Below are positions 9,808-56,037 of a DNA stretch of 64,000 bases, piece after piece. The notes beneath the pieces are model-generated. The model was not told where the DNA came from. It was given only the letters and a program-made list of their open reading frames with translations, and did not search any database. The DNA is taken from positions 8,072 to 72,071 of the forward strand of contig CAYJMD010000005.1 in the NCBI GenBank assembly GCA_964371585.1, written 5' to 3'. Positions within the stretch are counted from its first letter, which is position 1. The number at the start of each line of letters is the position of its first letter. This stretch comes from an uncultured Clostridiaceae bacterium. Its GTDB lineage: Bacteria > Bacillota > Clostridia > TANB77 > CAG-465. The position numbers were made by a program, and so were the translations under genes.

Positions 9808-11163
9808 ATGAAAATTACAGAATTACCTGCTTACAAGAGACTTGAAGAGATGTTTAAACAGAAAGGATATTCACTGGGTATAAAGAATAATATGCAAATT
9901 TATTCTTGGGATAACATTAAGCGTATTCCTGAAAATTTAACAAGTGGTCACTATGTATATGCTAGCGATCATGGAAAAATCAAATTTAAAGATATTCCAG
10001 AGACGTATCGTACAAGAGAATTTTTCCTACACGCACTATCAGGTGCATATCAAGATATTGTTGAATATGTAAAATTAGATTTCAAACGCTTTGACAAACA
10101 ATTCTTCAAAGACCATATCGAAACTGAGTATTACGCTCTAGAATTCGAACTTAATGATTTTGAATATATGCCACTTGAATTTATTGATGAAGAAATGGTA
10201 ACGTGTGCTATGTTTAAATCAGTTAATATGAGATATTCTGAGAAACGTGGAGATTGTGAAGACTGGTTTTATTCCGTACACAAAAGAAAACCCGAAGTTT
10301 TAACACAAGACTTGTATATCCTTGGAGCTAGATGCTTTGCTGCAAAAAGAAAGGAAAAAAATAACTTTCTAGACATTACACCTGAAGAATACAAAACAGA
10401 AGAATTCTACCTTGCTCTTTGCCTAAAAAATAATACACCTGTAATGGAAGATATCCCTGAAAATATATTAACAACTAATTTTCTTGTCACTTTGCTAAAT
10501 GATGATACTGGAAATATCCAGTGTTTTAGTGATTCTGCTCTTGAAAAAGAAGCTGTAATGCAAGAGAATGGTATAGTAAAGTTTTGGCAAGCAGCTATAA
10601 TCAAAGACGGATATCAAGTCGATAAGATACCTCTAAATGATGAGCGAGCTGAGTTCTTTTTATCTATTTATGATAAAGATTCTCAGGAATATGAATATAG
10701 CTTTAAAAAACATTACAAGAACTATCTTAATGAAAAAAATTCTACACCTAAATCTGAAAATAATGCAAGCGAGTTAGCAAGTATGATGACTTTAGCAGGA
10801 ATCTTAGGAGGAATGAATACAAATTCAGCAATTGATTCAGGTACTGATATTATGAATGCAGTAACAAACCGTCAATCTATGCTTCCTATTTATAATAAGG
10901 AAATAGTTCCTGCTGAGTATTCTAAAAAATACGACAAAGAAGAATACTTACTTGAAATATATAAAAAAATTGGTATTCAAGTGTTAGAAGAATCTGACGA
11001 ATATTATTACAGAATTAAATTTCCTGAAAATATTTCTGTTATCGAAGATGATTGTGGTTATTGTATAAAGGATTCTATAGGCAAAACTCTTATTCATTAT
11101 TATGACAGAGGACCATTCTATGATAGAAGAGTTATGGTAGATGAAATCAATATAACTCTTTAA
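9808..11163 (+). CDS. Hypothetical cytoplasmic protein (451 aa); helical repeats faintly DUF4116-like, tentative
   Basis: Strong SD AGGAGG. No TM or signal peptide. Recurrent helical segments (EFFLHALSGAYQDIVEYV, EEMVTCAMFKSV, EEFYLALCLKNNTPVMEDIPENIL). Own promoter (TTGTAA-17-TATAAT near 9681-9709) and own terminator. G+C visibly above the neighbours. Confidence 0.6.
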   Translation: MKITELPAYKRLEEMFKQKGYSLGIKNNMQIYSWDNIKRIPENLTSGHYVYASDHGKIKFKDIPETYRTREFFLHALSGAYQDIVEYVKLDFKRFDKQFFKDHIETEYYALEFELNDFEYMPLEFIDEEMVTCAMFKSVNMRYSEKRGDCEDWFYSVHKRKPEVLTQDLYILGARCFAAKRKEKNNFLDITPEEYKTEEFYLALCLKNNTPVMEDIPENILTTNFLVTLLNDDTGNIQCFSDSALEKEAVMQENGIVKFWQAAIIKDGYQVDKIPLNDERAEFFLSIYDKDSQEYEYSFKKHYKNYLNEKNSTPKSENNASELASMMTLAGILGGMNTNSAIDSGTDIMNAVTNRQSMLPIYNKEIVPAEYSKKYDKEEYLLEIYKKIGIQVLEESDEYYYRIKFPENISVIEDDCGYCIKDSIGKTLIHYYDRGPFYDRRVMVDEINITL

Positions 11164-13784: not shown

Positions 13785-13813
13785 AAAAAAGATGCAATTT
13801 TGCATCTTTTTTT
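13785..13813. terminator. Bidirectional rho-independent terminator
   Basis: A6-GATGCA-ATTT-TGCATC-T7 between convergent genes. Confidence 0.7.
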
Positions 13814-14552
13814 ATAACCCTATTGAAACAGATCTTAAAAAATTATTTTTAGCTTCTTCTACAACATTGAAATTTTCATAAACAATCCCTTCTTCTTCCT
13901 TAGTAAACTTATTTTTAGATCCCAGATATTCTTCTAGAGCATCTGACATTTCTCTTGTAAAAGCATTATGTTTAACCAAATAGTTAGCAATTATAATATC
14001 TATATGATTAAATTCGATTAACTGTTCTATAGTATACTTTGAAAGTGTACGATTTTTTTTCATTACTGATGTAGCAATACTAGAACTTTTAAAAAATTCT
14101 TTAATCTGATTATTTGACAAATTTTCAAAAAATTTTCTTCTTACAAATTTATCTATAAAAATAGGATTTTCCATTAGTTTAGATTTCAAAATTTCATCAA
14201 AATCTTTAATGAATGTTTTATCTTGCAACGCTGTGTATTCAGAAACATCTTTATACTTTATAAGATCATCTTCATACCAATATTCTTTAGGTAAATTCAT
14301 TAGGGGAACATTTCTAAAATATAATAATATCTTCCTATAATACTTAGGAACATATTTTTGATTTAACCGATTAGTTTGATATATTTTTCTCCATATTTCT
14401 CCAAGTTTAGAAATTTTTCTGTTTTTATCTTCATAATTTTTTGACTCTTTATATCCTTCATAAATTTCATCAGCTCTTATCAAAAGTTCTAATGTCAAAA
14501 ATGATCTATTAAATTCTAATGTGCCTCCTAATAAATATTTTATTTGTTTCAT
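13812..14552 (-). CDS. Hypothetical protein (246 aa), Lys/Tyr-rich, no recognised motif
   Basis: Long ORF with SD (AAAGAAAGGAAATACT-ATG). No TM. No family recognised by eye. Confidence 0.55.
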   Translation of the reverse strand: MKQIKYLLGGTLEFNRSFLTLELLIRADEIYEGYKESKNYEDKNRKISKLGEIWRKIYQTNRLNQKYVPKYYRKILLYFRNVPLMNLPKEYWYEDDLIKYKDVSEYTALQDKTFIKDFDEILKSKLMENPIFIDKFVRRKFFENLSNNQIKEFFKSSSIATSVMKKNRTLSKYTIEQLIEFNHIDIIIANYLVKHNAFTREMSDALEEYLGSKNKFTKEEEGIVYENFNVVEEAKNNFLRSVSIGL

Positions 14553-17157: not shown

Positions 17158-17351
17158 GGTTATACCTCCTTTAAGATTTTGATTAATACTAAAACTTATA
17201 ATTTCCTCTTCTTAAAGGGGTTACGATTTTTACTAATCAATGAGTATATTATATCACAAAATTTAACAAAAGCAAGGAATTTACATTTTTATTTAACATT
17301 TATCATTGTTTTATCAAATTTCGACAAAAAATAACCCCAAATATCTACTAT

Positions 17352-17385
17352 ACAAATAAAAAAGATGAGAATTATTCTCATCTTT
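17352..17385 (-). terminator. Rho-independent terminator of the coupling-protein module
   Basis: On the minus strand: AAAGATGAGA-ATAAT-TCTCATCTTT then TTTTATTTG. The stem overlaps the stop codon by 2 nt. Confidence 0.7.
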
Positions 17386-19366
17386 AATCTACTATATCAC
17401 TATCTGTGTCTCCAAAAAGTTCATCAAATTTTTTCTCTAATTCTTTTTGCAGATCAAATTCTTCTGATTTTTTAGTTTCAGTTACAACTGGTTTTACTTC
17501 TTCTTTAACTTCATTATCAAACTCTATCGCAGAACCTGAAGTTGCAGTTACATTATTTGAAGTTCCCATTTTAAATTCTTTAATTTTTCTATCAATCTCA
17601 TCTAAATGAGCTTGAACATTAAATGATTGTGGATCTATTTCAACTGGTTTTGGTGTATCTGTAATATTTGTTATCTTATATCTACCTATTACTTCTCTAT
17701 CTTTATGATATTTAAAAAACCAAGCTTTCTGTGTTCTTATAGGTCTTATACCTCTAATTAATAGTATTTCTTCATTTGGATTTAAACGTTTTATCTCATC
17801 AACTGTCATAAGCTCTCTACCTTGTCTTTGTTCACTAAAGCTTACCCCTTGTTTTTGAGTTTCAGTTTTATCTTTACTTATAGATCTACTTTCTATTTTA
17901 ATAGTTTTTTGTCCTAAAGACTTAGAAAAGTATTCACAAGTTTTTAAAGATTGACTTCCTAAGAATAATTGAGTATCACAGTTACCAATTATTGTTTCAT
18001 AATCATTTTTATACATTGCTTCAAGCTGATCTAAAGCTTGAACAATTACTGATACACTTATACCATAACTTCTTGTTGTACTTAATTTCTTTGGAAAATC
18101 AGGTATTTGTCCTATATTTACAAATTCATCTAGTAACATATATATTGGATTTTCTAAAGTTCCACCTAATTTATATGCTTCTGAATATAATGTTGTAAAC
18201 AATTGTGAGAAAAATATACTTAAGATATAGTCATATGTACTATGATCTGGTGGTGTAATTATATATAATGCTGTTTTATGTTTATATAATGACATGAAAT
18301 CAATCTCATTTATAGCTGTAACTTTAGCTATATTTGGAGTATCAAAATCTTTAAGTTTACTAACTAAACTTATTGCTATACTTTGTTTAGTTTTATCAGC
18401 AGCAAGTTTAATACTTTCATATTCTTTTCTACCTGGATGTTCTGGTTTTAACTCATCTATAAATAGCCTGTCCATAACTTTTTCATCAATTCCACCAGCT
18501 CTTACAATATTAACACACGATGATAGATTTTGTTCATCTTCTGGTAATAAAGATTTTACATAGTATATACACGCTTTAAGTAACATCATTGCTGAATCAT
18601 CCCAGAAAGTATCTCCAGAAGCATTTTTATCTTTTCCTGATTTAACTATAGTTTCTGCTAATATATTTACATCATTATGATCCTTTACATGAGCTAAAGG
18701 ATTATATCTATCACTATATTCAGTTTCAATAAGATTTAATACTTGTATATTATAACCATCTGCTTTTAGGTAATTAGCAGTATCTCTATACATTTCACCT
18801 TTTGGATCGGTAATTACATATGAACCTAATTTTTGCATTATATTAGGTTTTACATAACAAGCAGATTTACCTGCACCAGATCCCCCTATTACTAGTATAT
18901 TTTTATTTATTTTTACTTTCCTTTGATCTGTACCAAGGAAGTGTTTTTTACTTAAAATAAAACCTTCTTTTTTATTTAGAACTTCACTTCCATCTGAAAG
19001 TTTTCTAAACTCTTCTCCACCTTTTGCCCATTCACTCGAACCATTTTCAGTGCCTTCATAATCATGTTTCGTTTTATATTTATATCTATAATATAAATAA
19101 GCAAGTAACACCATTACAAATACATAGCCTAATCCTGACATAAACATGCCCATATTTTCACTATTTAAAGCAAAAACTTGTTCAATATTACCAAAAGGAT
19201 TAATAAAGTTCTGAGTAAATGTGTCTATAAAATTGTTTATTGATATACTACCATCTTCTGCAACACTGCTTACGAATATTGGCATATATACAAATATAGA
19301 TATTATTAAATAAAATATAATAAATATTATTATATGTTTTTTCACTTCATTAAAGTCAATCATCAT
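17384..19366 (-). CDS. Type IV secretion coupling protein-like ATPase (VirD4/TraG/TraD family), membrane-anchored
   Basis: 660 aa. Two N-terminal TMs. Walker A VLVIGGSGAGKSACYVKPN, Walker B YMLLDEFVNIGQIPDF. Downstream SVSVIVQALDQLEAMY block typical of T4CPs. Acidic C-terminal tail. Strong SD AAGGGGAG. Confidence 0.82.
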   Translation of the reverse strand: MMIDFNEVKKHIIIFIIFYLIISIFVYMPIFVSSVAEDGSISINNFIDTFTQNFINPFGNIEQVFALNSENMGMFMSGLGYVFVMVLLAYLYYRYKYKTKHDYEGTENGSSEWAKGGEEFRKLSDGSEVLNKKEGFILSKKHFLGTDQRKVKINKNILVIGGSGAGKSACYVKPNIMQKLGSYVITDPKGEMYRDTANYLKADGYNIQVLNLIETEYSDRYNPLAHVKDHNDVNILAETIVKSGKDKNASGDTFWDDSAMMLLKACIYYVKSLLPEDEQNLSSCVNIVRAGGIDEKVMDRLFIDELKPEHPGRKEYESIKLAADKTKQSIAISLVSKLKDFDTPNIAKVTAINEIDFMSLYKHKTALYIITPPDHSTYDYILSIFFSQLFTTLYSEAYKLGGTLENPIYMLLDEFVNIGQIPDFPKKLSTTRSYGISVSVIVQALDQLEAMYKNDYETIIGNCDTQLFLGSQSLKTCEYFSKSLGQKTIKIESRSISKDKTETQKQGVSFSEQRQGRELMTVDEIKRLNPNEEILLIRGIRPIRTQKAWFFKYHKDREVIGRYKITNITDTPKPVEIDPQSFNVQAHLDEIDRKIKEFKMGTSNNVTATSGSAIEFDNEVKEEVKPVVTETKKSEEFDLQKELEKKFDELFGDTDSDIVD

Positions 19367-19385
19367 ATCTCCCCTTACATAAATA

Positions 19386-19631
19386 TTAGATTATTAGTTC
19401 ATCAGAATCATCTGATTTTTCTTTTTCTACTGATTGCTCTACATTATTGTTATTTTCAGTTTCTTCAATTACAAATTCAACCGGTATTTGTTTTTTAATT
19501 TCAACCTCTTCTTTGATTAAACTAGGTTGTTTTTTTTCTATAGCATCTTTAATTTTTATGCTTGCTTTGCTTGAAATCGCAAATCCCTTTTCATCAACTG
19601 TTCCTGCTACTGCATTAACTACTATTCCCAT
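19386..19631 (-). CDS. Hypothetical small protein (81 aa) with acidic C-terminus
   Basis: ORF between the 173-aa gene and the T4CP gene on the same strand. Weak SD. C-terminus EKEKSDDSDELII. Coding status uncertain. Confidence 0.4.
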   Translation of the reverse strand: MGIVVNAVAGTVDEKGFAISSKASIKIKDAIEKKQPSLIKEEVEIKKQIPVEFVIEETENNNNVEQSVEKEKSDDSDELII

Positions 19632-19678
19632 CTTATTCTCGTATGATTACTCATACGCTCCTTTCCACATTAATCTAT

Positions 19679-20200
19679 CTATACAGATTTTATTTCCAGA
19701 ACAACATATGTTCTATGAGGTAATATTTTACATCTTCCCTTCATTTCATTTGTTACTGGATCTATAAATATTGACGGCTTTACTTCATCTCCATTTTGAG
19801 TATCAATTATTGTAAAGTGTCTTTTCATACTTGGATTATAAGCAACTTCTTTATATTCTACACCTTCAGTATTTAATATTGTTCCATAATATAAAGGAAT
19901 ATTCCCTTCTGTAACTTTAAATCCTTCTGCATTTAAATTACCTGTACTTAATATTGCTTTTTTATTTGTTAGCGTTAATAAAATAATTGCCTGATCTTCT
20001 TGTAAATCCTCAGTAATAACATTAAAAGTTTTAATCATTTTACCTTCTTTTTCAGAAGCAACATGATTTAATTTTTCTAATGTAAATGTTGAATCATACT
20101 CAGTAATTGGACTCTTATTTTTTTCTACTACAAATCCAATTGTATTCATCCCTTGTAAGTCTACTATTTCAAATTTATTTACTTGTATTATTGGTTCCAT
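19679..20200 (-). CDS. Hypothetical protein (173 aa), first gene of coupling-protein module
   Basis: Good SD AGAGGAGTG. No TM. No motif recognised. Confidence 0.6.
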   Translation of the reverse strand: MEPIIQVNKFEIVDLQGMNTIGFVVEKNKSPITEYDSTFTLEKLNHVASEKEGKMIKTFNVITEDLQEDQAIILLTLTNKKAILSTGNLNAEGFKVTEGNIPLYYGTILNTEGVEYKEVAYNPSMKRHFTIIDTQNGDEVKPSIFIDPVTNEMKGRCKILPHRTYVVLEIKSV

Positions 20201-20235
20201 ACTTTCACTCCTCTAAATAGTTGTATTACCCTTAT

Positions 20236-20264
20236 ATTATACAATACAATTTACATAATTACAA
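20236..20264 (-). promoter_or_regulatory. Sigma-A promoter of the 173aa-81aa-T4CP module
   Basis: Minus strand TTGTAA (rc of 20259-20264), 17-nt spacer, TATAAT (rc of 20236-20241). Lies in the 80-nt gap after the VanW-family gene. Confidence 0.5.
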
Positions 20265-20280
20265 CTTTTTTAATTATTTT

Positions 20281-21837
20281 TTACTCTTTAGTTCCTATTT
20301 TTACTATTTTATTTTGTGGAGAATACTTATCTTGTGATAAAAGTTCTCTTGAAACAATTTCTCCATCTAGTTTTTTCACAATGTAAGCTTCCGATATCTT
20401 TCCATTACTACCATTTGAAACTACAATTTCTTTACCTTTTTCTAGTGTATCATCATATATGTATTTAGTACTTGGATATAATGTTGATGTTACTACAGAT
20501 TCGATTTCTATTTCATATTCAATTTCTTCTTTCATCCCATACATACTTATATTTAAACTACCTGAAGGATCATATGTAGTAACTATTTTAATTGCATTAT
20601 TCCTTGTGTTTTTAAATTTGAAATCAAGTACTCCTGTATATATTGTAGCATCTCTACTTGGTAATACGTATCCAACTGGTAATCCATGTGCATATCTCAT
20701 TGTTATTTCTAAATTAGCAAGTAATGCTGTATTATATAATGATGATGAAACTTGGCATATACCTCCACCTGTTTCATTAACTATTGTTCCAGCCTTAAAC
20801 GTACCGGCTGGTAAATACCCTTGCTCTTTTGTTACATTACCAACAGTATTATTAAATGAAAATTCTTCTCCAGGTAATATTATAACCTCATCAATATAAC
20901 TTAAACCAATTTTTATATTATTACTTCTGTTATACTCATTTGGATTAAAATATGTGGTGAAACTTGCTACTTTATCTTCAAATAATTTATAACTTAAATC
21001 AACAGTTGTTATTGTAGGATTTATAGGAGTAAGATTAAGTTCACTCTCTACTGCACTACTAGAATAAAAATTATTAACAAATGCAGTTACTATATCTTTA
21101 TCTGTTCTATATCCAACAATTTCATTTATTAGAACTCTATTTATTTCATCAAATGTAGCATCTTTTGCTTCTACATTTGCAAGCTCGTATATTATTTGTG
21201 CCGATATTTGGTCAGGCACTTTTGTGTATATATCCAAACTATAATTATCTTGAATATTTGTTATGCTATTAAATATTGATTCTTTTTCTTTTTCATAATT
21301 AATAGCGTTACCTGTTTTGCCTTTAGTAAGTACAATCTTATTATTTGGTCTATCTAAGAAATACATATCATCTAAATATCTATCTTCTATTGTTAAATCA
21401 ATATTTCTAATAACTTCATCTAATTTTACTAAATCATAATCATATATAATTTCAATATCTTTTTTAAAAATATTATTTTTAAGTACATTTATTATATTAC
21501 TTAATTCATCTTCATCTCTTCCAGCAGCAAAACAAGCTAAAATAGTCTCAGAAATATTTATATTCAAATCTAAGTCTTCTGGTGTAATTGTTACACGCAT
21601 AGCATCATCTTGATAAATATGTAATTTTGATGAAGTTAACTCATCGTTAAATGAAATTATTAGTTCCTTTACTTCATCATAGGTATATCCGGATATATCA
21701 TGTCCATTAATATATATATTGTTGTATACATTATCATTTATCTTAATTGATATTACAATTAAAGAGATAGATATTAAAACAAAAATAAATATACATGAAA
21801 CTGTAATAATAAATTTCTTCTTTTTTTCCATATCCAC
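20281..21837 (-). CDS. VanW-family protein with N-terminal TM anchor and C-terminal G5 domain
   Basis: 518 aa. N-terminal TM. Central VanW-like block (LPGEEFSFNNTVGNVTKEQGYLPAGTF...GGGICQVSSSLYNTALLANLEI). C-terminal G5-like segment (KGKEIVVSNGSNGKISEAYIVKKLDGEIVSRELLSQDKYSPQNKIVKIGTKE). Confidence 0.8.
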   Translation of the reverse strand: MDMEKKKKFIITVSCIFIFVLISISLIVISIKINDNVYNNIYINGHDISGYTYDEVKELIISFNDELTSSKLHIYQDDAMRVTITPEDLDLNINISETILACFAAGRDEDELSNIINVLKNNIFKKDIEIIYDYDLVKLDEVIRNIDLTIEDRYLDDMYFLDRPNNKIVLTKGKTGNAINYEKEKESIFNSITNIQDNYSLDIYTKVPDQISAQIIYELANVEAKDATFDEINRVLINEIVGYRTDKDIVTAFVNNFYSSSAVESELNLTPINPTITTVDLSYKLFEDKVASFTTYFNPNEYNRSNNIKIGLSYIDEVIILPGEEFSFNNTVGNVTKEQGYLPAGTFKAGTIVNETGGGICQVSSSLYNTALLANLEITMRYAHGLPVGYVLPSRDATIYTGVLDFKFKNTRNNAIKIVTTYDPSGSLNISMYGMKEEIEYEIEIESVVTSTLYPSTKYIYDDTLEKGKEIVVSNGSNGKISEAYIVKKLDGEIVSRELLSQDKYSPQNKIVKIGTKE

Positions 21838-28204: not shown

Positions 28205-28233
28205 TTGCATATTTTTATTATTTATGGTATAAT
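28205..28233 (+). promoter_or_regulatory. Sigma-A promoter driving the large non-coding region and downstream membrane-protein gene
   Basis: TTGCAT (28205-28210), exactly 17-nt spacer, TATAAT (28228-28233). Divergent from the rpsB promoter. Confidence 0.6.
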
Positions 28234-28239
28234 ATGTAT

Positions 28240-28840
28240 TGATGGTGCATTATTCTAGTAATGCTGTATATTATGAGGGTGGGGCTAAAAATCCACTAAA
28301 GAGCATATCGTTGAAGTTTCTTTTAAGTGCGCATTACGCCCAGTTTTGTGTGTTTGATGGAAGTAAGATTTTAGGGTACAATATAATGGCATATATTTAA
28401 CCCCCTTAAATCGTGGAGGCTTAAATTTAGCATATATTTTTTGCTGTATTTAAGTATAACCTATGTAAAGTGCCAAGACACAATACATAGTGTAGCTTGA
28501 CTTGAGTGAGAATATTGGGATATATTTTAAACGTAATAAACTGTTATGGCCATAATAGTTTATTTACTGATATTGAAATTATTATTGCAAAAAAGTCTAA
28601 TAATATTAACAGTGTTTTTTAAGGAAAACTTCTAGAATGTTTGTTTTACTTCAAAGCATGATTTTTTAAGGATTAAGGTACGGACTTAAGTGGCGATCTA
28701 GTTTTCTAATAGGTGACTTTAGAATATTTCTTTTAAATGGAAACAACTACACAGCAATGTTTAGTAAGAAATAGAGAAATTCTACTAGACCTGAAACCGT
28801 AAAATTTACTTATAAAATTACCATCAATTTTATTTTAATT
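28240..28840 (+). ncRNA. Candidate large structured non-coding RNA (~600 nt); OLE-RNA-like by size and gene context
   Basis: The track has no ORF >=60 aa in any frame between 28036 and 28853. G+C is locally high: I counted 23/60 in both 28261-28320 and 28321-28380, versus 4/60 in the intergenic line 1261-1320. Contains hairpin GCATTA-TTCTAG-TAATGC (28247-28264), a 15-bp inverted repeat at 28535-28564, and GC-rich islands (GAGGGTGGGGC, GTGCGCATTACGCCC, CGTGGAGGC, GGTACGGACTTAAGTGGCGATC). No terminator before the downstream gene. Boundaries approximate. Confidence 0.45.
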
Positions 28841-28853
28841 AAGAAAGAGAAAA

Positions 28854-29501
28854 ATGGAAGAAGATAATTTAAAACAAAAAGAAAAAAAGATAATTTCAAA
28901 AACAACTACAAAGAGTAAAACGAAAAAAGCACGTAAACATTTAAATAAATCAACTTTTGATTGGTTTATTCAAGTTTCAGTAATGACATTTGTGCTTTCA
29001 CTTATTTTTTCGCTTATATCAACACTACTTATATCAAAATTGGATTTATTTCCAGCAATATTAATGTTGCTTTTAGTAATATTTTTAGGTGTTTTTTTTG
29101 ATGTTGTAGCTGTTGCTGTAACAATTGCTAAAGAACATAATTTCCACGCTAAAGCTAGTAAAAAGATAAAAGGAGCTAAAACGTCTTTATTTTTAATTAG
29201 TAACTCGCACAAGGTTTCAAACTTTTGTGCTGATGTAATTGGCGATATAGCTGGTGTACTAAGTGGTGCAATATCTGCTCTTATAACAATGAAGATTATG
29301 AGTGATTTTAATATTTCTATGGATTTACAATTTATAATAAGTGCTATAGTAGCTTCACTTACTGTAGGTGGTAAAGCAATAGGTAAATCAGTTGCAAAAG
29401 AATACTGTGATGAAATCGTGGACAAAGTTAGTAAGATATTGAATAAATTTGATAAAAAAGATAATTTAAATACAAAAGCTAAGCAAACAAATAATAAATA
29501 A
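28854..29501 (+). CDS. Small 4-TM membrane protein with Lys-rich N-terminal tail (OapA-like by architecture and position, tentative)
   Basis: 215 aa. N-terminus KQKEKKIISKTTTKSKTKKARKHLNK, then four predicted TM helices, then a Lys-rich C-terminus. Lies directly downstream of the ORF-free structured region with no intervening terminator. Confidence 0.5.
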   Translation: MEEDNLKQKEKKIISKTTTKSKTKKARKHLNKSTFDWFIQVSVMTFVLSLIFSLISTLLISKLDLFPAILMLLLVIFLGVFFDVVAVAVTIAKEHNFHAKASKKIKGAKTSLFLISNSHKVSNFCADVIGDIAGVLSGAISALITMKIMSDFNISMDLQFIISAIVASLTVGGKAIGKSVAKEYCDEIVDKVSKILNKFDKKDNLNTKAKQTNNK

Positions 29502-40607: not shown

Positions 40608-41339
40608 TTAATTAGTAATCATCCAAATAAGATCACTAACACCTGTATTTATTGCCATACAAAGGCCTATATACATATCAATAATAACTTGTGGATCTAC
40701 AACCATTATTATAAATGTAGCTATTACTATGAACGGTCCAAAAGGTATATAGCTTTGACCATCTTTTTTCTTAATAATCATTAGTATTCCACCTATTATC
40801 GCACCAATAAAGAAAGATACTAATGATACAACAAGAATAGTCTTAACTCCAAATATAAAACCAAGAGCTGCCATTAACTTTACGTCACCAAATCCCATGC
40901 CTTCTTTTTTATAAATAATGAGTGCGAGTAGAGCAATAGCAAAAAAGATTCCTCCTCCTGTTAACGCACCTAGTATCGCTGATATTACTGTCATATCTGT
41001 AACAATAATATTCATAATCCCTAACATTGCAAGAGCTATATGTGCTTCATCTGGAATAAGTTGTATTTTGTAATCTATTACAAAAACTATAACTAAGATA
41101 GATGATATTATAATATATAGATAAGTTAAAAAATCCACTCCTAAAAAATATGTCAACATATTGCTTATTATCAACATAATAATACTATATATATAATCAA
41201 CTTTAAAATCTTTTAAAATAGTAGAAAAAAACTCTTTATATGTAATTTCTTCAGCTACAACAGGTGGCATTTTTTTATTTAAATGACCTATAACCTGTCC
41301 TAGTAATATAGCAATAATATTTATTATAAATATGTTCAT
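40608..41339 (-). CDS. A24-family prepilin peptidase, catalytic domain only (no N-terminal Cys-motif domain)
   Basis: 243 aa, multi-TM. Both catalytic Asp contexts are present (VIDYKIQLIPDE and GMGFGDVKLMAALG). No CxxC...CxxC region. Start overlaps the yqeG stop by 4 nt. Confidence 0.8.
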   Translation of the reverse strand: MNIFIINIIAILLGQVIGHLNKKMPPVVAEEITYKEFFSTILKDFKVDYIYSIIMLIISNMLTYFLGVDFLTYLYIIISSILVIVFVIDYKIQLIPDEAHIALAMLGIMNIIVTDMTVISAILGALTGGGIFFAIALLALIIYKKEGMGFGDVKLMAALGFIFGVKTILVVSLVSFFIGAIIGGILMIIKKKDGQSYIPFGPFIVIATFIIMVVDPQVIIDMYIGLCMAINTGVSDLIWMITN

Positions 41340-45559: not shown

Positions 45560-46411
45560 TTATTGTCCATCATAAGTTGTTAAAAAATTATTATACATCA
45601 TTGTAGTTGCTACATCTGTATGTCCTAATATTTCTTGTAATTTTTTAATATCTAATCCATTACTTAGTTGGTGTACTGCAAACGAGTGTCTAATAGTATG
45701 TGGAGTAAGTTCTTTTGTAATGCTTGCACCTTCTTTGTATTGTTTTAATATCTTCCAAAATCCTTGTCTTGTTAATTTTTTACCATTAGCATTTAGGAAT
45801 AATGTATCATCTGTATCAATTTTAGCTAGTAATGGTCTAATATTTTCCATATAAGATCTTAGATAATTAAGTGTAGATTTATTTAACTTAACTGTTCTTG
45901 CAATTTGACCTTTACTAATTTTTACTGTTGCTAGATTTAAACTTATATCACTAGTTTTAAGAGATATTAATTCTGTAACTCTCATACCTGTTGCATATAA
46001 TATATGTAACATTGTTTCATCTCTTCTTCCTTTTAAATCGTTTGCAACTGTTTGTGTTAATAGAGCCTCAATCTCTTTTTTACTAAGTATTGCTGGATCT
46101 TTTTTTTCTACTTTATATGTTTTCACATCTTTTACAATATTTGTCTCTGCTAAATTTTTACTTACTAAATATTTATAGTAAGCTTTTATAGAAGCAGACA
46201 CTCTTGATATTGTAGCATTAGATTTGCCATTTATTCTTAAGTATTCTAAATACTCTTGCATATCTTCTGAATTTAAATAGAATACTTGTTTATTTAATTC
46301 TTCAAAATATTTTTCAAATTTTGTTATATCACGTTCGTAAGATGCTATTGTATTTTTAGCAGCATGTTTTGATTGTAAATAACCTAAAAATTCATCAATA
46401 ATAACTTTCAT
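45560..46411 (-). CDS. Tyrosine site-specific recombinase, XerC/XerD-like
   Basis: RDETMLHILYATGMRVTELISL, HTIRHSFAVHQL, LGHTDVATTMMY (R..HxxR..Y catalytic set). Start set to ATG 46411 (SD GGGAGG). No flanking repeats or cargo seen. Confidence 0.8.
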   Translation of the reverse strand: MKVIIDEFLGYLQSKHAAKNTIASYERDITKFEKYFEELNKQVFYLNSEDMQEYLEYLRINGKSNATISRVSASIKAYYKYLVSKNLAETNIVKDVKTYKVEKKDPAILSKKEIEALLTQTVANDLKGRRDETMLHILYATGMRVTELISLKTSDISLNLATVKISKGQIARTVKLNKSTLNYLRSYMENIRPLLAKIDTDDTLFLNANGKKLTRQGFWKILKQYKEGASITKELTPHTIRHSFAVHQLSNGLDIKKLQEILGHTDVATTMMYNNFLTTYDGQ

Positions 46412-46544
46412 TTTTGAGCCTCCCACTTGACTACATATATTATATATTATTTTGGCTCTATTTGCAACCTTTTTCACATATTTTCATTCAAACTTATGTA
46501 AATTATTAATGATACATCGTTATTCAGGTATTTTTTTATTCTTT

Positions 46545-48954: not shown

Positions 48955-50277
48955 TTATAATTGTATAAATGATCCCATGTATATTTCAATCATTGGTACT
49001 ACAACGACTAATACAAAAGCTATCATTGGTATACCAACTAAAAGGTATGTAACATCTGGTAACCATTTTGCAAAAGCATCCATTGATTCATTGATTTCAT
49101 CTTCTGTATATTCATTAACTTTTTCCATCATTTCAGCTAGATCACTCTTCATACCTATATCCATCATTTGTGAAACCATAGGTGAAAACACTTCTGTATC
49201 TTCGAATGGTGTTATCCATGACTCACCCACCATACTATTATTTTTAGCTACTTCAACAATTGATAAAAAATAGTAATTATTAGTTACATCTTTAGAAACA
49301 TTTAAACTTTCTTGTAACCTCATTCCATTTCTTAAATTTAGTAGCATTGCTTTAAAAAACTTATTTAATGTAATGTTTGTAACAAGTCTTCCAACTACAG
49401 GAAATCTCATTAACATCCTATTATAATTAAATTTACCTCTTGGTGTATTTACATATGTCATAATAAGCAGTATTATTCCAATTATAGGAATAGCTATTAT
49501 ATACCAATATGATTGTACCCATACAGCTATATCAAAAGCAAGTTGAGTTGCCGGTGGTATTTGAGCTTGAGATTCAAATATATCGAAAACTTCTAACATT
49601 ATAGGTACCCCTACTATTACCGCAATAAACATAAGTACTAATATTAATATAAATTGTAAAACTCTAGGTAATAATACAGATGTAATTTGTTTTTTTAATT
49701 TATTTGAAGAATCTACATAGTCTCTTGCATACAATAAAGCTTTTTCTAAAGAACCTGATTCTTCTCCAACACGAACAAAATTAATAAACATTTTTGAAAA
49801 AGCATTTGGATGATTTTCCATAGCAACATTTAGTTTTTCACCAGATTGAACAGATATAAGTAAATCTTCTATTATTTCTTTAAAAGTATGACTTTCTGTT
49901 CCATCATATAATGCCTCAAGTGCAGCAATATTATTAAACCCAGCTTTTTTAAGTCTGTATAAGTTATTAGCAAATGCTATTATATCTTTTTTCTTGACTC
50001 TTTTAAATATTTTTGCTTCTAATGCATTTATTTGACCCATTAAAGTAGTTTGAGATTTTTTTTCATCTCTTTCTATTATTCCAGTTTTCTTAAGAAAATC
50101 ATCATTTTTAGATTTCTTTTTAGGTGCTTTAGTAGTTGTAGTTATTTTTTTAACACTAAGAGGTTGTAACTTAGCTTCTTTTAATTTTACTAATAATTGT
50201 TGTTTATTAGGAGCAACGAGTTTTCCTTTAGTCACTTTACCATCTCTCATTACCGCTTTATATAAGTATTCAGCCAA
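48955..50277 (-). CDS. pilC: Type IV pilus assembly platform protein PilC (GspF family)
   Basis: 440 aa. N-terminus AEYLYKAVMRDGKVTKGKL, duplicated GspF domains, 3 TM blocks. TTG start with SD AGGAGGG. Confidence 0.88.
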   Translation of the reverse strand: MAEYLYKAVMRDGKVTKGKLVAPNKQQLLVKLKEAKLQPLSVKKITTTTKAPKKKSKNDDFLKKTGIIERDEKKSQTTLMGQINALEAKIFKRVKKKDIIAFANNLYRLKKAGFNNIAALEALYDGTESHTFKEIIEDLLISVQSGEKLNVAMENHPNAFSKMFINFVRVGEESGSLEKALLYARDYVDSSNKLKKQITSVLLPRVLQFILILVLMFIAVIVGVPIMLEVFDIFESQAQIPPATQLAFDIAVWVQSYWYIIAIPIIGIILLIMTYVNTPRGKFNYNRMLMRFPVVGRLVTNITLNKFFKAMLLNLRNGMRLQESLNVSKDVTNNYYFLSIVEVAKNNSMVGESWITPFEDTEVFSPMVSQMMDIGMKSDLAEMMEKVNEYTEDEINESMDAFAKWLPDVTYLLVGIPMIAFVLVVVVPMIEIYMGSFIQL

Positions 50278-50291
50278 ATTTATCCCTCCTT

Positions 50292-51395
50292 TTATTTATC
50301 TGATATTAATTTGCCAGAATTTAAAATTAATCCTTTTATTACTTCTAATCTATCTGTATCCATTACACCTTTTATAGTCTCCATATCAATTATATCATTA
50401 ACATATAACTCCGCAAGCACAGTTTCAAAACTTTGAGAACCTGCATATCTAGATGTATGAATGCTATCTTCAATTTCTGGAATACTAAATTTTTCTTGCC
50501 TAATTTGAGCTGCAATTGTATTAGTAACACACATTACTTCTGGTGCAAGTACTAAATCACCTGTTTTACCAACAAGTAGTTTCTGAGAAATTACTAATTT
50601 TATAACACTTGATAAAGAATTTTTAATAGCAAGTTGATCAGATGGATCATACATGTTTATTATTCTATCAATAGTCTCCCCACAAGATCTAGTATGTAAC
50701 GTTCCAATAACTAGGCCTCCAGACTCAGCAAGATCAAGAGCTACATTCATAGTATCTTTATCTCTTATTTCACCAATAACAGCAATGTCTGAGTCTTCTC
50801 TTAAAACATTTATTAACGCTTCTTCAAATGTTGGTACATCTCCTTCGATTCCAACTTCTTTTTGTACAACTACAGATTTTATAGGTTTATGTATATACTC
50901 TATAGGATCTTCTATTGTAACAATTTTTTTATATTCTGCTTTATTAACTTCTTGTATAAAAGCATTCATAGTAATTGATTTTCCAGAATTTACTTTACCT
51001 GTTATTAATATTAGTCCTGAATTTATCTTTCTTATCTTTTTAACCAAGTCACTTATTCCGTTAGCCTCCAAATCAATTTCTCCATTCGGAATTGCTCTTA
51101 TTGAAAATGTTGGAACAGATCTAGTTAAAGAAACATTAATTCTAAATCTATACCCATTATATGAGTGAGCAAAATCCAATTTTTTATTTTTTTCAAATAT
51201 TTCTTTTAACTTAGTGTTTGATCCAAAAAAATAATATAGAATATCTTCTAATATTCCTTTATTCATTTCTATCATCATTTCATCTGGAATAAGCTGTTTT
51301 CTTATTCTGAATACTGGTTTATAGTTTGGTGCTAAATGAATATCCGTTGCATTTTTATCTATCGCTGCCTGTAATATAATATCTAATATATCCAT
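50292..51395 (-). CDS. pilT: Type IV pilus retraction ATPase PilT
   Basis: 367 aa. ATDIHL, Walker A GKVNSGKS, TIEDPIEY, Walker B/Asp box IAVIGEIRD, His box GTLHT. Confidence 0.9.
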   Translation of the reverse strand: MDILDIILQAAIDKNATDIHLAPNYKPVFRIRKQLIPDEMMIEMNKGILEDILYYFFGSNTKLKEIFEKNKKLDFAHSYNGYRFRINVSLTRSVPTFSIRAIPNGEIDLEANGISDLVKKIRKINSGLILITGKVNSGKSITMNAFIQEVNKAEYKKIVTIEDPIEYIHKPIKSVVVQKEVGIEGDVPTFEEALINVLREDSDIAVIGEIRDKDTMNVALDLAESGGLVIGTLHTRSCGETIDRIINMYDPSDQLAIKNSLSSVIKLVISQKLLVGKTGDLVLAPEVMCVTNTIAAQIRQEKFSIPEIEDSIHTSRYAGSQSFETVLAELYVNDIIDMETIKGVMDTDRLEVIKGLILNSGKLISDK

Positions 51396-51438
51396 TATTA
51401 TCTCCTATCTTTTAGTACATTAATCATCATATGTACTT

Positions 51439-53079
51439 TTACATTGTAATTTTTTTACCTAGTTCGTCAATTGTTGTTATTCCCGCTAAAACTTTTTTTA
51501 TACCATCAACAACAAGTGGTTTATATCTTGTGTTTTTAATAGCGTATTTTTTTATATCTAGAGTTGATGAACCTTCTGAAATCATTTCTTTAATTTCATC
51601 TGTTAAACATAAAACTTCAAAAATACCAATTCTCTCATAGTAACCAGTTCCATTACATTTTGCACAACCTACAGGTTTACAAACTTTAGAATTAATCATA
51701 TCAAACTCAATATCATTATGTGTTGCTACTTTTTCAATATATTTAAGATCTTTTTCTGATAATTCACCATGTTCTTTACAATTATCACATAATTTTCTTA
51801 CAAGTCTTTGTGATACAGCCGTTACTAATGTTGATGCTATATCATATGGAGATAGTCCCATTTTTTTAATCCTTGTAATCGACTCAATAGCATCTGTAGT
51901 ATGTATAGTAGATAGTACTAAGTGCCCTGTTTGACCTGATTCCATAGCTATTTCAGCAGTTTCTCTATCACGAATCTCTCCAACTAGTATTATATTTGGA
52001 TCTTGTCTTAATGCTGTTCTAAGTGCAGAAGCAAATGTTATATTTGGACCTATTTCTACTTGGTTAACCCCTGGTATTCTCATTTCTACAGGGTTTTCTA
52101 TAGATAGTACATTTATACTAGGGTCATTTAAAAAGTCTAGAACACTATATAATGTTGTTGTTTTACCTTCACCTGTAGGAGCACAAACAAGTATTAAACT
52201 ATTTCTCTTATTAAATGCTTCATCAACAAGTTCAGAATCTCTTTCAAATCCAAGTTCAAATATATCTTTAACATCATTGTTTTTCTTTAAAAATCTTAAA
52301 ACAAATTTTTCACCAAAAATATTTTTCTGACTAGATACACGAACACTAAAATTTTCTAAAGTATCTATACTACCATCTTGATCATACGATATTTCTTGAT
52401 GCATATTTGACATAGCTTTTATTCTTCCTGAAATAATATTTTGTCTTTCTTTAGGAAGATCTGTAGCATTAATAAGCTGTCCATCTATTCTAAATCTAAC
52501 TCTTACTTTATCTGCCATTGGTTCAATATGAATATCACTTGCTCTTTTTGCTACACCAGTCATTAATATATTATCTATTAATCTTGTAGTATCTTTTTCT
52601 TCTTTATCTACAAATTTACTTTCAACACTTTTAACATCACCTATTTGTTTCATTATAGATGTATATAATGTAACAAATTTTACAAGTTCATACCCTGCAT
52701 TCATAAGCATCATTTCTATTTCTTTTACTTTTTCAGTATTTTGAATATCTGCAAATGCAACATATAGTTTAGAACCATCTAATTTAAAAGGAAATGCTCT
52801 GTAGTTTATTATTATATCTCTAGGTAAAAATTCTATAGGTTTAACTTCAATTCGTCCTTCTTCTAACATTATTCCCTCTACTTGAACTTTTTCAGAAATT
52901 ACTTTTAAAAGTTGATTCTTATCACACATATCAAGTACATCAACAATTTCACCAAACTTTAGTTCCTTATGCTCTTTTTGATATTCTAAAACCCTATTAA
53001 CCTGGGCAGTTGTTAAAAGGCCCTTTTTTATAAATTCTAATCCAATTGGATTTTTCTTAGCTTTTACATTTTCAAACAT
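51439..53079 (-). CDS. pilB: Type IV pilus assembly ATPase PilB (GspE family)
   Basis: 546 aa. N-terminal MshEN/T2SSE_N-like domain, ASDIHIEP, Walker A APTGEGKT, SIENPVE, ILVGEIRD, STIHT, tetra-Cys cluster (CDNCK...CAKCNGTG). Confidence 0.9.
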   Translation of the reverse strand: MFENVKAKKNPIGLEFIKKGLLTTAQVNRVLEYQKEHKELKFGEIVDVLDMCDKNQLLKVISEKVQVEGIMLEEGRIEVKPIEFLPRDIIINYRAFPFKLDGSKLYVAFADIQNTEKVKEIEMMLMNAGYELVKFVTLYTSIMKQIGDVKSVESKFVDKEEKDTTRLIDNILMTGVAKRASDIHIEPMADKVRVRFRIDGQLINATDLPKERQNIISGRIKAMSNMHQEISYDQDGSIDTLENFSVRVSSQKNIFGEKFVLRFLKKNNDVKDIFELGFERDSELVDEAFNKRNSLILVCAPTGEGKTTTLYSVLDFLNDPSINVLSIENPVEMRIPGVNQVEIGPNITFASALRTALRQDPNIILVGEIRDRETAEIAMESGQTGHLVLSTIHTTDAIESITRIKKMGLSPYDIASTLVTAVSQRLVRKLCDNCKEHGELSEKDLKYIEKVATHNDIEFDMINSKVCKPVGCAKCNGTGYYERIGIFEVLCLTDEIKEMISEGSSTLDIKKYAIKNTRYKPLVVDGIKKVLAGITTIDELGKKITM

Positions 53080-53093
53080 TATTACATTTCCTC

Positions 53094-53315
53094 CTATTTA
53101 TTTATTTCGTTATATCTATTATACTGAACCAATTGTTCGTATACTTCCTCTTTTTTATCTAACTCATTACTATAATAATCTTTAGTGTTTTGAATATACT
53201 CATTACTTATATACTCAAAATGCTCTTGCTCTGCATATACTGAAGTTGAATAAATAGTAACAATTATTGATGATACAATAACAAGTAGTATTGCTGATCC
53301 TGTTTTTTTATTCAT
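53094..53315 (-). CDS. Small pilin-like membrane protein (73 aa)
   Basis: N-terminus MNKKTG|SAILLVIVSSIIVTIY resembles a class III signal peptide but has no Glu at +5. Sits between the minor pilin gene and pilB. Confidence 0.4.
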   Translation of the reverse strand: MNKKTGSAILLVIVSSIIVTIYSTSVYAEQEHFEYISNEYIQNTKDYYSNELDKKEEVYEQLVQYNRYNEINK

Positions 53316-53318
53316 AAA

Positions 53319-53756
53319 TTATTCTCCTAAAGCAAAAAACATTTGCTTTTCTGATACAACATCATATTTTTCAAACTTAACACTTATAGCTAGAGCTTTA
53401 AAGTCTTCTATCTCATTTAATGTAACTAGTGATTCATCAATTACAGTAAAGTTTTCCACGCTATCAATAAAAAAACCACCATTTTTATTAACTCTTTTTT
53501 TGTCAATATCATATTCGTAGTAATCGCCATTTGAAAAAGCTATTGTATTTCCAACTACAGAAAACGATGTACTTGCCTTACTACTTGTAAATAAATTATA
53601 ATGTAGCTTCATTTCTTGTTCACTAATTAAAATACTACCTTTGTCCGAAAGTGATGTATAAGTAAAATTATTAGTAATGCTTGTAACTAATGTAGTCAGG
53701 ACAAAAAATAGTGCAACATAAACAATTAATGAAGTAATTGAAATTCCTCTTTTCAT
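53319..53756 (-). CDS. Minor pilin-like protein (145 aa)
   Basis: N-terminus MKRG|ISITSLIVYVALFFVLTTLV (Ser at +5). Start is 1 nt after the upstream gene's stop. Confidence 0.5.
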   Translation of the reverse strand: MKRGISITSLIVYVALFFVLTTLVTSITNNFTYTSLSDKGSILISEQEMKLHYNLFTSSKASTSFSVVGNTIAFSNGDYYEYDIDKKRVNKNGGFFIDSVENFTVIDESLVTLNEIEDFKALAISVKFEKYDVVSEKQMFFALGE

Positions 53757-53757
53757 A

Positions 53758-54543
53758 TTATAACACCTTCTTTTTTAATGTAGATAATTCTAACATTTGT
53801 GACTGACCATCAAAATTATACCTAACAATTACATATATTTCTTTTATATAGTCTTTTCTGTCTACCTCATAATCTGAATATTTTTCAACATTAACATCAA
53901 TGTAATAAACTATACCATCAACCTCTTCTTGTACATTAAAACTATTCAAACTATTATATTCTGTAGCAAGTGCAACTTCTACATATTTAGATCCTGTTAA
54001 GTAGGCATTATTTTTTGCTGTTGTATAAATATTTTTTTCTGCTATGTTTGATGTCGTAACAAATGTCATTCCTATTACTGAAACAAAAAATATAAAAGCA
54101 ACTATTATTTCCAATACAAAAACACCTTTTTTAGTTTTTAAATTTTCAATTTCACCTAAAATTAACTTTCTTTTCATTATATAATAACTTGTATTTAAGA
54201 AAAATAATGAATATAAAATGATAGCAAAAATATAGTATATAGAAAAATTAAATACATAGTACAATAATACAAATACTATACCATTGAATAGTTCAAATAA
54301 CGGATATCTAATACTAATTTTTTCTTTGCAATATCTACATTTGCCGCCAGAAAAAGTATAACTAAGTATTGGAATTAAATCAAAAAATCCTAATTCATGT
54401 TTGCAATTAGGACAAATAGATCTACTTTTAACAATATCCATCTTCCTAGGCAATCTATATGATGCCAATGTAAAAAAACTACCAAATAAAGTACCAATAA
54501 TAAAAATATTAATATATATGTATATTTGTATCTCTAACGGCAT
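53758..54543 (-). CDS. Fusion protein: prepilin-peptidase N-terminal Cys-motif domain + type IV pilin-like C-terminal half
   Basis: Residues 1-~120 match the PilD N-terminal domain (GSFFTLASYRLPRK...SICPNCKHELGFFDLIPILSYTFSGGKCRYCKEKISIRYPLFEL) but no A24 catalytic Asp motifs follow. From M123 (54177) the same frame reads MKRKLILGEIENLKTKKG|VFVLEIIVAFIFF, a canonical prepilin leader with Glu+5. No SD precedes M123. Confidence 0.6.
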   Translation of the reverse strand: MPLEIQIYIYINIFIIGTLFGSFFTLASYRLPRKMDIVKSRSICPNCKHELGFFDLIPILSYTFSGGKCRYCKEKISIRYPLFELFNGIVFVLLYYVFNFSIYYIFAIILYSLFFLNTSYYIMKRKLILGEIENLKTKKGVFVLEIIVAFIFFVSVIGMTFVTTSNIAEKNIYTTAKNNAYLTGSKYVEVALATEYNSLNSFNVQEEVDGIVYYIDVNVEKYSDYEVDRKDYIKEIYVIVRYNFDGQSQMLELSTLKKKVL

Positions 54544-54617
54544 TTTATCAACTCCTTTATATATGTATTTTGTAGCATATTTTTTTATTAATATGCTATA
54601 AATGCATATATTTGATT

Positions 54618-54652
54618 AAAGAGCATATACCTTATATATGCATATGCTCTTT
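54618..54652 (-). terminator. Possible intra-operon attenuating terminator after the major pilin gene
   Basis: AAAGAGCATAT / ATATGCTCTTT 11-bp stem just downstream of the pilin stop. Weak T-tract, so probably leaky. Confidence 0.4.
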
Positions 54653-54663
54653 AAAATATTATA

Positions 54664-55098: not shown

Positions 55099-55128
55099 AA
55101 TTTCACCTCCTTCAAAATAATTTTAAAA

Positions 55129-55635: not shown

Positions 55636-55643
55636 TTAATCTC

Positions 55644-56027: not shown

Positions 56028-56037
56028 ACTTCCTCCA

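Follow-up and report, generated by a model that had tools for sequence, protein, structure and literature searches.

A VirD4/TraG-type ATPase and its partner protein in the chromosomal core of uncultured Clostridia

Type IV coupling proteins (T4CPs) serve as diagnostic markers of conjugation and of type IV secretion systems (T4SSs), for instance in CONJscan and in finders for integrative conjugative elements (ICEs), and the genes studied here are annotated 'conjugative DNA transfer protein' in metagenome-assembled genomes (MAGs). What, then, is a VirD4/TraG-type ATPase doing between core genes in a 64-kb stretch of contig CAYJMD010000005.1 (hereafter the window), from an uncultured Clostridiaceae bacterium? 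The ATPase gene follows two small genes, which encode proteins of 173 aa (P173) and 81 aa (P81), and the original prediction, made from the sequence alone, had left two readings of this module: either it is all that remains of a decayed ICE, or its T4CP has been domesticated and has a non-conjugative role. Our analysis leans, with somewhat better than even confidence, towards an operon that is not an ICE but encodes a domesticated, vertically inherited VirD4/TraG-type ATPase and its dedicated partner, with a motor that most likely acts on DNA.

A coupling-type ATPase with an invariant partner

The 660-aa ATPase (17384..19366, minus strand, as for all features of the operon; hereafter T4CP) matched the Pfam families T4SS-DNA_transf (PF02534; E-value 1.1e-77, 262 bits against a cutoff of 20.1), TraG-D_C (5.8e-37) and TrwB_AAD_bind (1.4e-27 over residues 154-536), which bears out the VirD4/TraG assignment of the original prediction; neither the FtsK_SpoIIIE motor domain nor the gamma domain was among its Pfam matches. 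The NCBIfam model NF045973, 'VirD4-like conjugal transfer protein, CD1115 family', matched at 427.8 bits (cutoff 250). Two hydrophobic segments in a Kyte-Doolittle scan (residues 7-38 and 71-93), separated by a loop of ~35 aa, form a predicted N-terminal membrane anchor (19088..19348). The Walker A motif GGSGAGKS is located at residue 161 (18863..18886; codons GGG GGA TCT GGT GCA GGT AAA TCT) and the Walker B motif LLDEF at residue 411 (18122..18136). The protein therefore combines the profile match, transmembrane anchor, Walker A and B motifs and all-alpha domain by which coupling proteins are recognized, and its nearest solved structure by sequence is Helicobacter pylori Cag5/VirD4 (8dol). 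More than 120 chromosomal relatives share 52-66% identity with it, and the chromosomal T4CPs of the deep branches described below share 41-43%. Identity to T4CPs of CD1115 plasmids is 32-39% (core), the nearest plasmid T4CPs reaching 34-39%, and an exact-sequence look-up returned no record. Sequence comparison identifies it as a full-length member of the family, derived from the Firmicute CD1115 conjugative lineage. Because the neighbourhood searched contained no relaxase or VirB4 partner, it is a structural member of that family and not a demonstrated 'coupling' protein.

The chromosomal proteins can be told apart from their plasmid counterparts by their C-terminal end. The peptide (F/Y)D[LI]xKxLExKFD[EL]LFG, which follows a hypervariable low-complexity linker, was near-invariant in 66 loci and in the deep branches described below, and in the window it corresponds to the predicted signature helix FDLQKELEKKFDELFG (residues 637-652; 17411..17458); in short form the signature of the lineage reads FDLQxELExKFDELFG. 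In a plasmid CD1115 T4CP, the corresponding position shows no more than a weak DLRDELEKLFE. We therefore assign the chromosomal T4CPs, by this peptide on its variable linker, to a distinct sub-lineage. One deep T4CP subfamily (L075:2006-3889 and L077:6879-8753) has a deviant P-loop, GGAGSRKS, with Arg for the canonical Gly before Lys, and retains the C-terminal FDIQKQLExKFDELFG.

When one genome for each GTDB species was scanned with alignment-based patterns, P173 was detected in 65 species-level genomes, all uncultured 'Clostridia'/'Bacillota' MAGs from guts and digesters, with Clostridium sp. CAG:465, CAG:921 and CAG:1219 among the carriers; its relatives, ~60 in number and 49-65% identical, came from MAGs or metagenomes. 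Co-occurrence of the genes in relatives had been put forward as a test of the module, and the P173–T4CP pair proved to be jointly conserved: the T4CP gene came immediately after P173 in 68 of 69 loci, and the lone exception ends at a contig edge. In a census of open reading frame (ORF) families at related loci, P173 and T4CP were the only universal families (66/66), and all 66 T4CPs were full length once their frames were corrected for the shift discussed below. Median pairwise ratios of non-synonymous to synonymous substitution rates (dN/dS) were 0.12 for P173 and 0.15 for T4CP, against 0.12 for gyrA and 0.14 for dnaX from the same loci, values that are meaningful only in comparison with one another because dS is near saturation.

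The pair also keeps its place. In the commonest and probably ancestral order, a divergently oriented dnaJ is followed by gyrA, the ORF family f2, VanW, P173, a small ORF, T4CP, the family f5, dnaX, ybaB and recR, all in one direction; the arrangement from gyrA to recR was observed in ~30 genomes. The window represents a variant in which secDF follows the module, as it does in loci L005, L006 and L057. From these comparisons, the P173–T4CP pair is under purifying selection of housekeeping level within a core synteny. The f5 product, of ~230 aa and without a Pfam family, is encoded directly downstream of T4CP, before dnaX, in 34 loci (for example, L001:12957-13643). We considered it as a counterpart of a 246-aa ORF in the window, but the two share no similarity, and f5 has no counterpart there.

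In the window, P173 (19679..20200), P81 (19386..19631) and T4CP are best read as a single operon with its own promoter and terminator; the promoter, the three genes, the membrane segments, the Walker motifs and the terminator were all recovered where the original prediction had placed them. A motif scan put the sigma-70-type promoter, TTGTAA-17-TATAAT, at 20236..20264. The intrinsic terminator, with an 11-bp stem, a 3-nt loop and a T-run (17351..17385; hairpin 17385-17361), overlaps the T4CP stop codon, and three such sites (hairpin plus T-run) were found against 0.9 expected. By itself, the promoter motif was not significant in this AT-rich (27%-GC) DNA, with 24 sites found against 27.6 expected. 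However, this weak match is rescued by its conserved position across related loci, given that an equivalent TTGnAA-17-TATAAT, with a match of at least 10/12, ended 24-46 nt before the P173 start in 45/66 of them, compared with 12/66 control windows.

Chromosomal context and the mobile-element question

The original prediction had described the module as embedded among core genes, and a Pfam scan of nearly all window ORFs of at least 180 aa agrees. On one side lie genes for PolC, RseP, CdsA, Frr, an ABC transporter and SecDF. After the module come the VanW/G5 protein, DUF2207, a racemase, LemA, Tsf and RpsB, then the ornate, large, extremophilic (OLE) RNA and, beyond it, FtsH, TilS, DnaB, GdpP, KsgA, TyrS, a two-component system and SpoIID; a type IV pilus cluster, ScpA and RecA complete the set. 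The immediate neighbours named at the outset were recovered as well, namely secD/secF (by ORF family), a zf_Tbcl zinc ribbon and a VanW-type protein with PG_binding_4, VanW and G5 domains (Pfam; 20281-21837, minus strand).

Neither VirB4 nor a relaxase turned up in these Pfam scans, which took in nearly every window ORF of 180 aa or longer. Using VirB4, VirB6, PrgI, DUF3801 and a hydrolase of the CD1115-type plasmid system of Clostridium botulinum pCDC3875 as tblastn queries, we obtained no match in 1.36 Mb covering ±10 kb of 74 loci. A T4SS or relaxase adjacent to the module, as expected of an ordinary ICE, was thus found neither here nor at related loci. The description of the T4CP as an 'orphan' holds in this sense, for the neighbourhood alone. 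P173 did not occur in any of 72,556 plasmids or of 50,697 phages, no repeats bracketed the module beyond chance-level AT-rich ones, and no compositional island was apparent, the GC content of the module being equal to that of its flanks. The earlier statement that relaxase, VirB4, integrase and repeat boundary are all missing from the 64 kb stands for relaxase, VirB4 and repeats. For integrases it does not quite hold: a tyrosine recombinase of 305 aa that resembles XerC/D (Phage_integrase and Phage_int_SAM_1; 45560-46477, minus strand) adjoins the two-component system, 25 kb from the module.

These results bear directly on whether the module could be the last remnant of a decayed ICE or integrative mobilisable element (IME), without current function. 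Its T4CP clearly descends from the conjugative CD1115 family, as such a remnant would. However, the ORFs are intact in at least 65 species with dN/dS of 0.12-0.15, the promoter, Shine–Dalgarno (SD) sequences and terminal motifs are conserved, and the chromosomal context is the same across species. No relaxase, integrase or att-like repeat is adjacent. Of the features that define an ICE or IME, we observed neither a border integrase with att repeats, nor a relaxase with a T4SS or oriT, nor a patchy spread with odd composition. The intact motifs and dedicated promoter and terminator had been cited against simple decay from the start, an argument strengthened by the conserved promoter position in relatives. 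Given the conserved pair, the lack of T4SS genes, the absence from plasmids and phages and the purifying selection, ICE decay is excluded for practical purposes; we assign it a negligible probability and regard it as effectively refuted. Conversely, the lean of the original prediction towards domestication is strongly supported by the invariant pair and its recurrence in deep branches, its core synteny, gyrA-like selection, the conserved promoter and the lack of T4SS genes nearby.

T4CPs hand substrates to a VirB4/VirB6-type channel, and an unlinked T4SS or conjugation apparatus on the same chromosome could use this T4CP as its substrate receptor, with P173 and its tail as adaptor or cargo. 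Serving such a channel is the usual task of T4CPs, and the acidic-hydrophobic C-terminal tail described below resembles T4SS substrate signals. Moreover, in one related genome (locus L002) the region ~9 kb upstream of the module encodes another TraG-D_C protein, together with a T4SS_pilin and a weakly TrbL/VirB6-like product. This region (L002:1-1752, on a contig shared with L033) encodes the TraG-D_C protein of 523 aa and a small membrane protein beside DnaD/DnaI-like genes, and was seen at this locus only. By contrast, VirB4, VirB6 and PrgI were not found within ±10 kb of the 74 loci or in the window, the L002 genes did not recur, and mobile CD1115 T4CPs are contiguous with VirB6, PrgI and VirB4. 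The hosts also appear to be reduced-genome bacteria. On balance, we consider service to an unlinked T4SS unlikely. With no mating machinery nearby and an invariant partner, the domesticated T4CP would probably have a new housekeeping job, likely one related to DNA.

The partner, its tail and a putative role on DNA

P173 matched no family in Pfam, NCBIfam, PADLOC or PHROGs. An AF2 model built from the family alignment was all-beta, with 14 strands, a predicted local distance difference test score (pLDDT) of 84 and a predicted template modelling score (pTM) of 0.79, and the protein has no signal peptide or hydrophobic segment and an isoelectric point (pI) of 5.3. The model thus describes P173 as a cytosolic tandem beta-sandwich without known relative. 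A function could not be read from the fold, as Foldseek searches against PDB and BFVD returned generic two-Ig-domain matches only (for example, antibody Fc; template modelling score ~0.3, E-value > 1e-3). Likewise, the idea that P173 might be a diverged form of DUF3801, which holds the upstream position in mobile systems, was rejected on a negative BLASTP search and an hhalign probability of 0.2%.

The gene between P173 and T4CP is of a different kind. In 49 loci this position is taken by a small ORF, 40-123 aa long, whose middle part is K/E-rich and hypervariable; another 15 loci have no separate small ORF, and P173 itself is 207-222 aa long there, with the tail fused to it. The sole conserved element of split and fused tails is the extreme C terminus, G-E-D-[DE]-[MLP]-I-[VI]-COOH: of 64 loci, 42 have D at -5, 47 have I at -2 and 49 have V/I at -1; a few loci end in ...E-x-L-x-W instead. 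P81 has a pI of 4.55 and ends in SDDSDELII (19389..19415, delimited by position-specific counts in relatives), in agreement with the acidic tail noted originally, and it matched nothing in Pfam, NCBIfam, PADLOC or PHROGs. An AF2 model of a naturally fused P173 showed a confident core and disorder over residues 170-210 (pLDDT <50). From this predicted disorder and the conserved C terminus, we describe the tail as a flexible arm bearing a short linear motif, and P81 (compared with the fused relatives) as the split-off disordered tail of P173. The possibility that the N-terminal segment of the tail completes the P173 fold gained no support, as the whole tail is predicted to be disordered in the fused homologue. 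The 'three-gene module' of the original prediction therefore keeps its adjacent genes and its P173–T4CP pair, but appears to comprise two functional parts, with the 81-aa gene encoding a split-off tail.

A GGAGG-type SD of at least 5 nt precedes 41/49 of the orthologous small ORFs, which argues that they are real genes. The 81-aa ORF of the window is atypical in that its ATG has no SD of its own. A strong SD, GGAAAGGAG (19658-19666), lies 26 nt upstream and serves an out-of-frame mini-ORF of 10 codons instead (MSNHTRIRWE; 19622-19654), which overlaps the start of the 81-aa gene such that its stop overlaps codons 3-4. Because the 81-aa ORF lacks an SD, translation of P81 would need coupling, and GGAAAGGAG together with the mini-ORF is possibly the device that provides it.

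How might these parts work together? We propose that the T4CP forms a membrane-anchored, hexameric, NTP-driven motor and that P173 with its tail acts as its private adaptor or regulator. Considering the P173 tail alongside the T4CP C terminus, both partners carry conserved terminal peptides on flexible linkers, and by analogy with known systems these two peptides may be where they dock.

Evidence bearing on the substrate of the motor came from distant relatives. An exhaustive profile search of 1.84 billion representatives yielded 124 proteins related to P173. Stand-alone deep relatives were 23-36% identical to one another, with homology supported by hhalign (99.9%, E-value 1e-35), and every one with retrievable context lay directly upstream of a T4CP bearing the same C-terminal signature. 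The T4CPs of these branches were 41-48% identical to the window T4CP and to one another, exceeding their identity to the plasmid protein. In 5/5 deep branches with enough downstream sequence, sbcD-sbcC (Metallophos and AAA_23/AAA_27), which encode a nuclease of Mre11/Rad50 type, directly followed the T4CP gene (L071:8001-13710, L073:8001-13969, L077:6001-11778, L078:2584-8334 and L079:7001-12751). The gap was 0-7 nt in some loci and as much as 313 nt at the widest; the genes upstream of the module varied by branch. The recurrent neighbours in the main clade were gyrA and, downstream, dnaX-ybaB-recR. In archaea, mre11-rad50 genes are operon-linked with HerA and their products bind it (PMC2288612); like TrwB, VirD4 and FtsK, HerA belongs to the FtsK-HerA superfamily of pump ATPases (PMC2288612). 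The sbcDC, gyrA and dnaX-ybaB-recR neighbourhoods, taken with the HerA analogy, lead us to prefer a motor that would handle DNA and would have P173 and its tail for an adaptor or regulator.

Several observations weigh against this assignment. The sbcDC genes were found in 0/66 loci of the window's clade within ±10 kb, nor are they present in the window, so that the DNA link in this clade rests on the looser synteny near replication genes. No T4CP is known to translocate anything without a channel, and the search for a channel was confined to neighbourhoods. P173 is acidic, and no nucleic-acid-binding features were seen in it. Neither did tail type (...I[IV] versus ...W) show a co-variation signal with columns of T4CP or P173. 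All relatives are from MAGs, and the near-saturation of dS mentioned above also counts here. Finally, P173-like domains occur within metagenomic proteins of 700-1049 aa together with TIR_2, Sel1 repeats or a Ser/Thr kinase (P0273, P0292, P0294, P0298, P0306 (L076:201-2714), P0271 and P0301). Such fusions suggest that the domain is a mobile, generic sensing or protein-binding module, possibly in conflict or signalling proteins, and hint at sensing or conflict rather than DNA maintenance.

In a conflict or defence module, P173 would be a beta-sandwich sensor and the T4CP a membrane ATPase effector or a pump that expels invading DNA. The fusion partners of P173-like domains are combinations typical of immune and signalling proteins, and FtsK-HerA-type ATPases occur in several defence systems. 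However, the proposed check with defence predictors (PADLOC-DB 2.0) gave no significant match: the T4CP P-loop partially matched DpdF (2.3e-4, 60 residues) and mad8 (5.6e-4), and P173 and P81 matched nothing. Defence genes are normally patchy and island-borne, whereas this pair is universal among the loci, vertically inherited in a fixed core synteny and constrained like gyrA. We therefore consider a defence role improbable.

A minimal export or recruitment system, in which the T4CP recognizes the tail motif and exports P173/P81 or anchors it at the envelope, perhaps with the VanW-type enzyme, appears no more probable than defence. To have a conserved motif at the C terminus of a disordered arm is a typical trait of secretion signals. 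A VanW/G5 gene of L,D-transpeptidase type lies directly upstream in about 35-40 loci, and a LytR-CpsA-Psr gene is upstream in another clade; VanW domains act as peptidoglycan L,D-transpeptidases in Clostridioides difficile (PMC11348318). On the other hand, P173 has no signal peptide, its compact fold would need unfolding, and no channel component was identified in the regions searched. Furthermore, many lineages have kept the pair but lost the VanW linkage, and the deep branches are linked to sbcDC, not to envelope genes. The three roles suggested originally, export of the acidic protein, defence and sporulation, gained no direct support, and the neighbourhood points to DNA metabolism instead.

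The comparison of related loci also uncovered an unusual feature of the ATPase gene. Sixteen related species have an extra C that breaks the T4CP frame exactly at the Gly-Gly of Walker A (...GTT GGA C GGA TCT GGT...; loci L008, L013, L014, L015 (11416-11436), L016, L018, L019, L020, L021, L023, L028, L031, L036, L042, L045 and L067). Unshifted relatives read GGT GGA TCT here, and the window, likewise unshifted, reads GGG GGA TCT. In the shifted genes, the 0 frame continues as V-V-G-R-I-W-C-W-stop, ending within five codons. The +1 frame, which has no start codon, becomes open 1-3 codons ahead of the site and stays so for at least 134 codons. Skipping the extra C restores VVGGSGAGKS, and the predicted trans-frame peptide is ...NILVVGGSGAGK. 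Among 107 GGNCGGN sites in 1.3 Mb, 17 switch between ORFs, all of them in the T4CP gene; L014 has a second, identical GGA-C-GGA at another Gly-Gly (position 11803). CGG accounts for ~0.02% of codons, and within one large clade the shifted genes are spread over several sub-branches, where they alternate with unshifted genes. The related loci thus combine a conserved rare-codon site with retention of both halves and no independent start, and GGA-C-GGA is likely a site of programmed +1 ribosomal frameshifting on the rare CGG. This looks like gene-specific frameshifting that would gate production of the ATPase half. +1 frameshift sites of the 'hungry codon' type are known from prfB, Ty3 and influenza PA-X, and the P-loop site would be a rare gene-specific case in a bacterial chromosomal gene other than prfB.

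A more detailed version of the domestication reading can be drawn up from these elements, although we consider it less likely than not. In this version, the T4CP has been exapted in reduced-genome gut Clostridia as a core, channel-independent, HerA/FtsK-like housekeeping DNA pump that works with SbcCD and replication-repair proteins, under control of a P173 adaptor with a disordered, SSB-like acidic tail, its dosage being set in a large sub-clade by the +1 frameshift on the rare CGG in Walker A. The hosts are presumably TANB77-like reduced-genome clades, to which the 27% GC content, the OLE RNA and the CAG-named relatives point indirectly. We found no prior description in the literature of an orphan or domesticated T4CP in Clostridia, a standalone T4CP, a link between T4CPs and SbcCD, or the P173 partner, and the papers on TANB77 and on OLE RNA do not mention the module.

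A vertically inherited core T4CP would imply that a coupling protein can be exapted from the mating channel, which bears on what such a motor can do alone; the options include DNA pumping and recognition of substrates through terminal peptides. It would also make the conjugation-related annotations misleading for a whole group of prevalent uncultured gut bacteria. As a compact system of two to three proteins, the module may lend itself to dissecting how a T4CP recognizes its partner, and its repeated association with sbcDC suggests that bacteria have a counterpart to the HerA-Mre11-Rad50 arrangement of archaea.

Elsewhere in the window, a full-length OLE RNA (Rfam RF01071) was detected at 28226-28840 (plus strand; 345 bits, E-value 8e-98). 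A 215-aa membrane protein with a weak CNNM-type match (28854-29501, plus strand) is encoded in the position expected for OapA after OLE RNA. Type IV pilus or competence-type genes, not type IV secretion genes, occupy 40608-41339 and 48955-58400 (minus strand); they encode a prepilin peptidase, a PilC-like T2SSF protein, PilT-like and PilB-like T2SSE ATPases, a PilN-domain protein and pilin-sized ORFs. Three ORFs had no Pfam match at E ≤ 0.01: 9808-11163 (plus strand, 451 aa), 13812-14552 (minus strand, 246 aa) and 58554-59750 (minus strand, 398 aa).

Comparison with known systems

The closest known relatives of the module ATPase are the T4CPs of the CD1115 family, which is named after a C. difficile gene and comprises T4CPs of Firmicute conjugative plasmids and ICEs. 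Both share the two-segment transmembrane anchor, the Walker A and B motifs, the TrwB_AAD_bind and TraG-D_C regions and, weakly, the C-terminal helix. The mobile operons, however, run DUF3801-T4CP-VirB6(CD1112)-PrgI-VirB4(CD1110)-SLT, and none of these partners lies near the module. Its upstream partner is instead an unrelated predicted beta-sandwich, its T4CP gene is core, syntenic and vertically inherited, and its C-terminal signature is far more strongly conserved.

The terminal peptides recall other docking devices. The acidic C-terminal tail of F TraD binds TraM, T4SS substrates carry C-terminal signals, and single-stranded DNA-binding protein (SSB) contacts its partners through the acidic tip of a disordered linker. 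In the module, both the T4CP and its partner carry a short acidic/hydrophobic C-terminal peptide on a flexible region, which, by analogy with TraD–TraM and with T4SS substrate signals, may serve for recognition. Unlike the F system, it has no relaxosome, TraM-like protein or relaxase at the locus.

The frameshift site resembles one in the mitochondria of glass sponges, where +1 frameshifting occurs at a rare CGG_(A) and the extra base lies 5' of GGA (PMC5009743). The GGA|C|GGA / CGG_A configuration is the same, with a very rare Arg codon in the A site and Gly-tRNA in the P site. The T4CP case differs in being bacterial and chromosomal, within Walker A, conserved across many species and known from sequence alone.

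For the motor itself, two comparisons are instructive. FtsK/SpoIIIE and Streptomyces TraB are hexameric DNA pumps, anchored in the membrane, that need no T4SS channel and have long low-complexity linkers. The module T4CP has the membrane anchor, the low-complexity linker and the superfamily in common with them, and may likewise translocate DNA; by contrast, no FtsK_SpoIIIE domain was detected in it, and its domain order differs. The HerA-NurA-Mre11-Rad50 operons of archaea and Deinococcus-Thermus offer a parallel in gene arrangement, as an FtsK-HerA-superfamily pump is operon-linked there to Mre11/Rad50 much as T4CP, sbcD and sbcC follow one another in the deep branches. The module nevertheless departs from these operons in its membrane-anchored VirD4-type ATPase, in its beta-sandwich accessory protein, with no NurA seen, and in a linkage that is confined to branches outside the window's clade.

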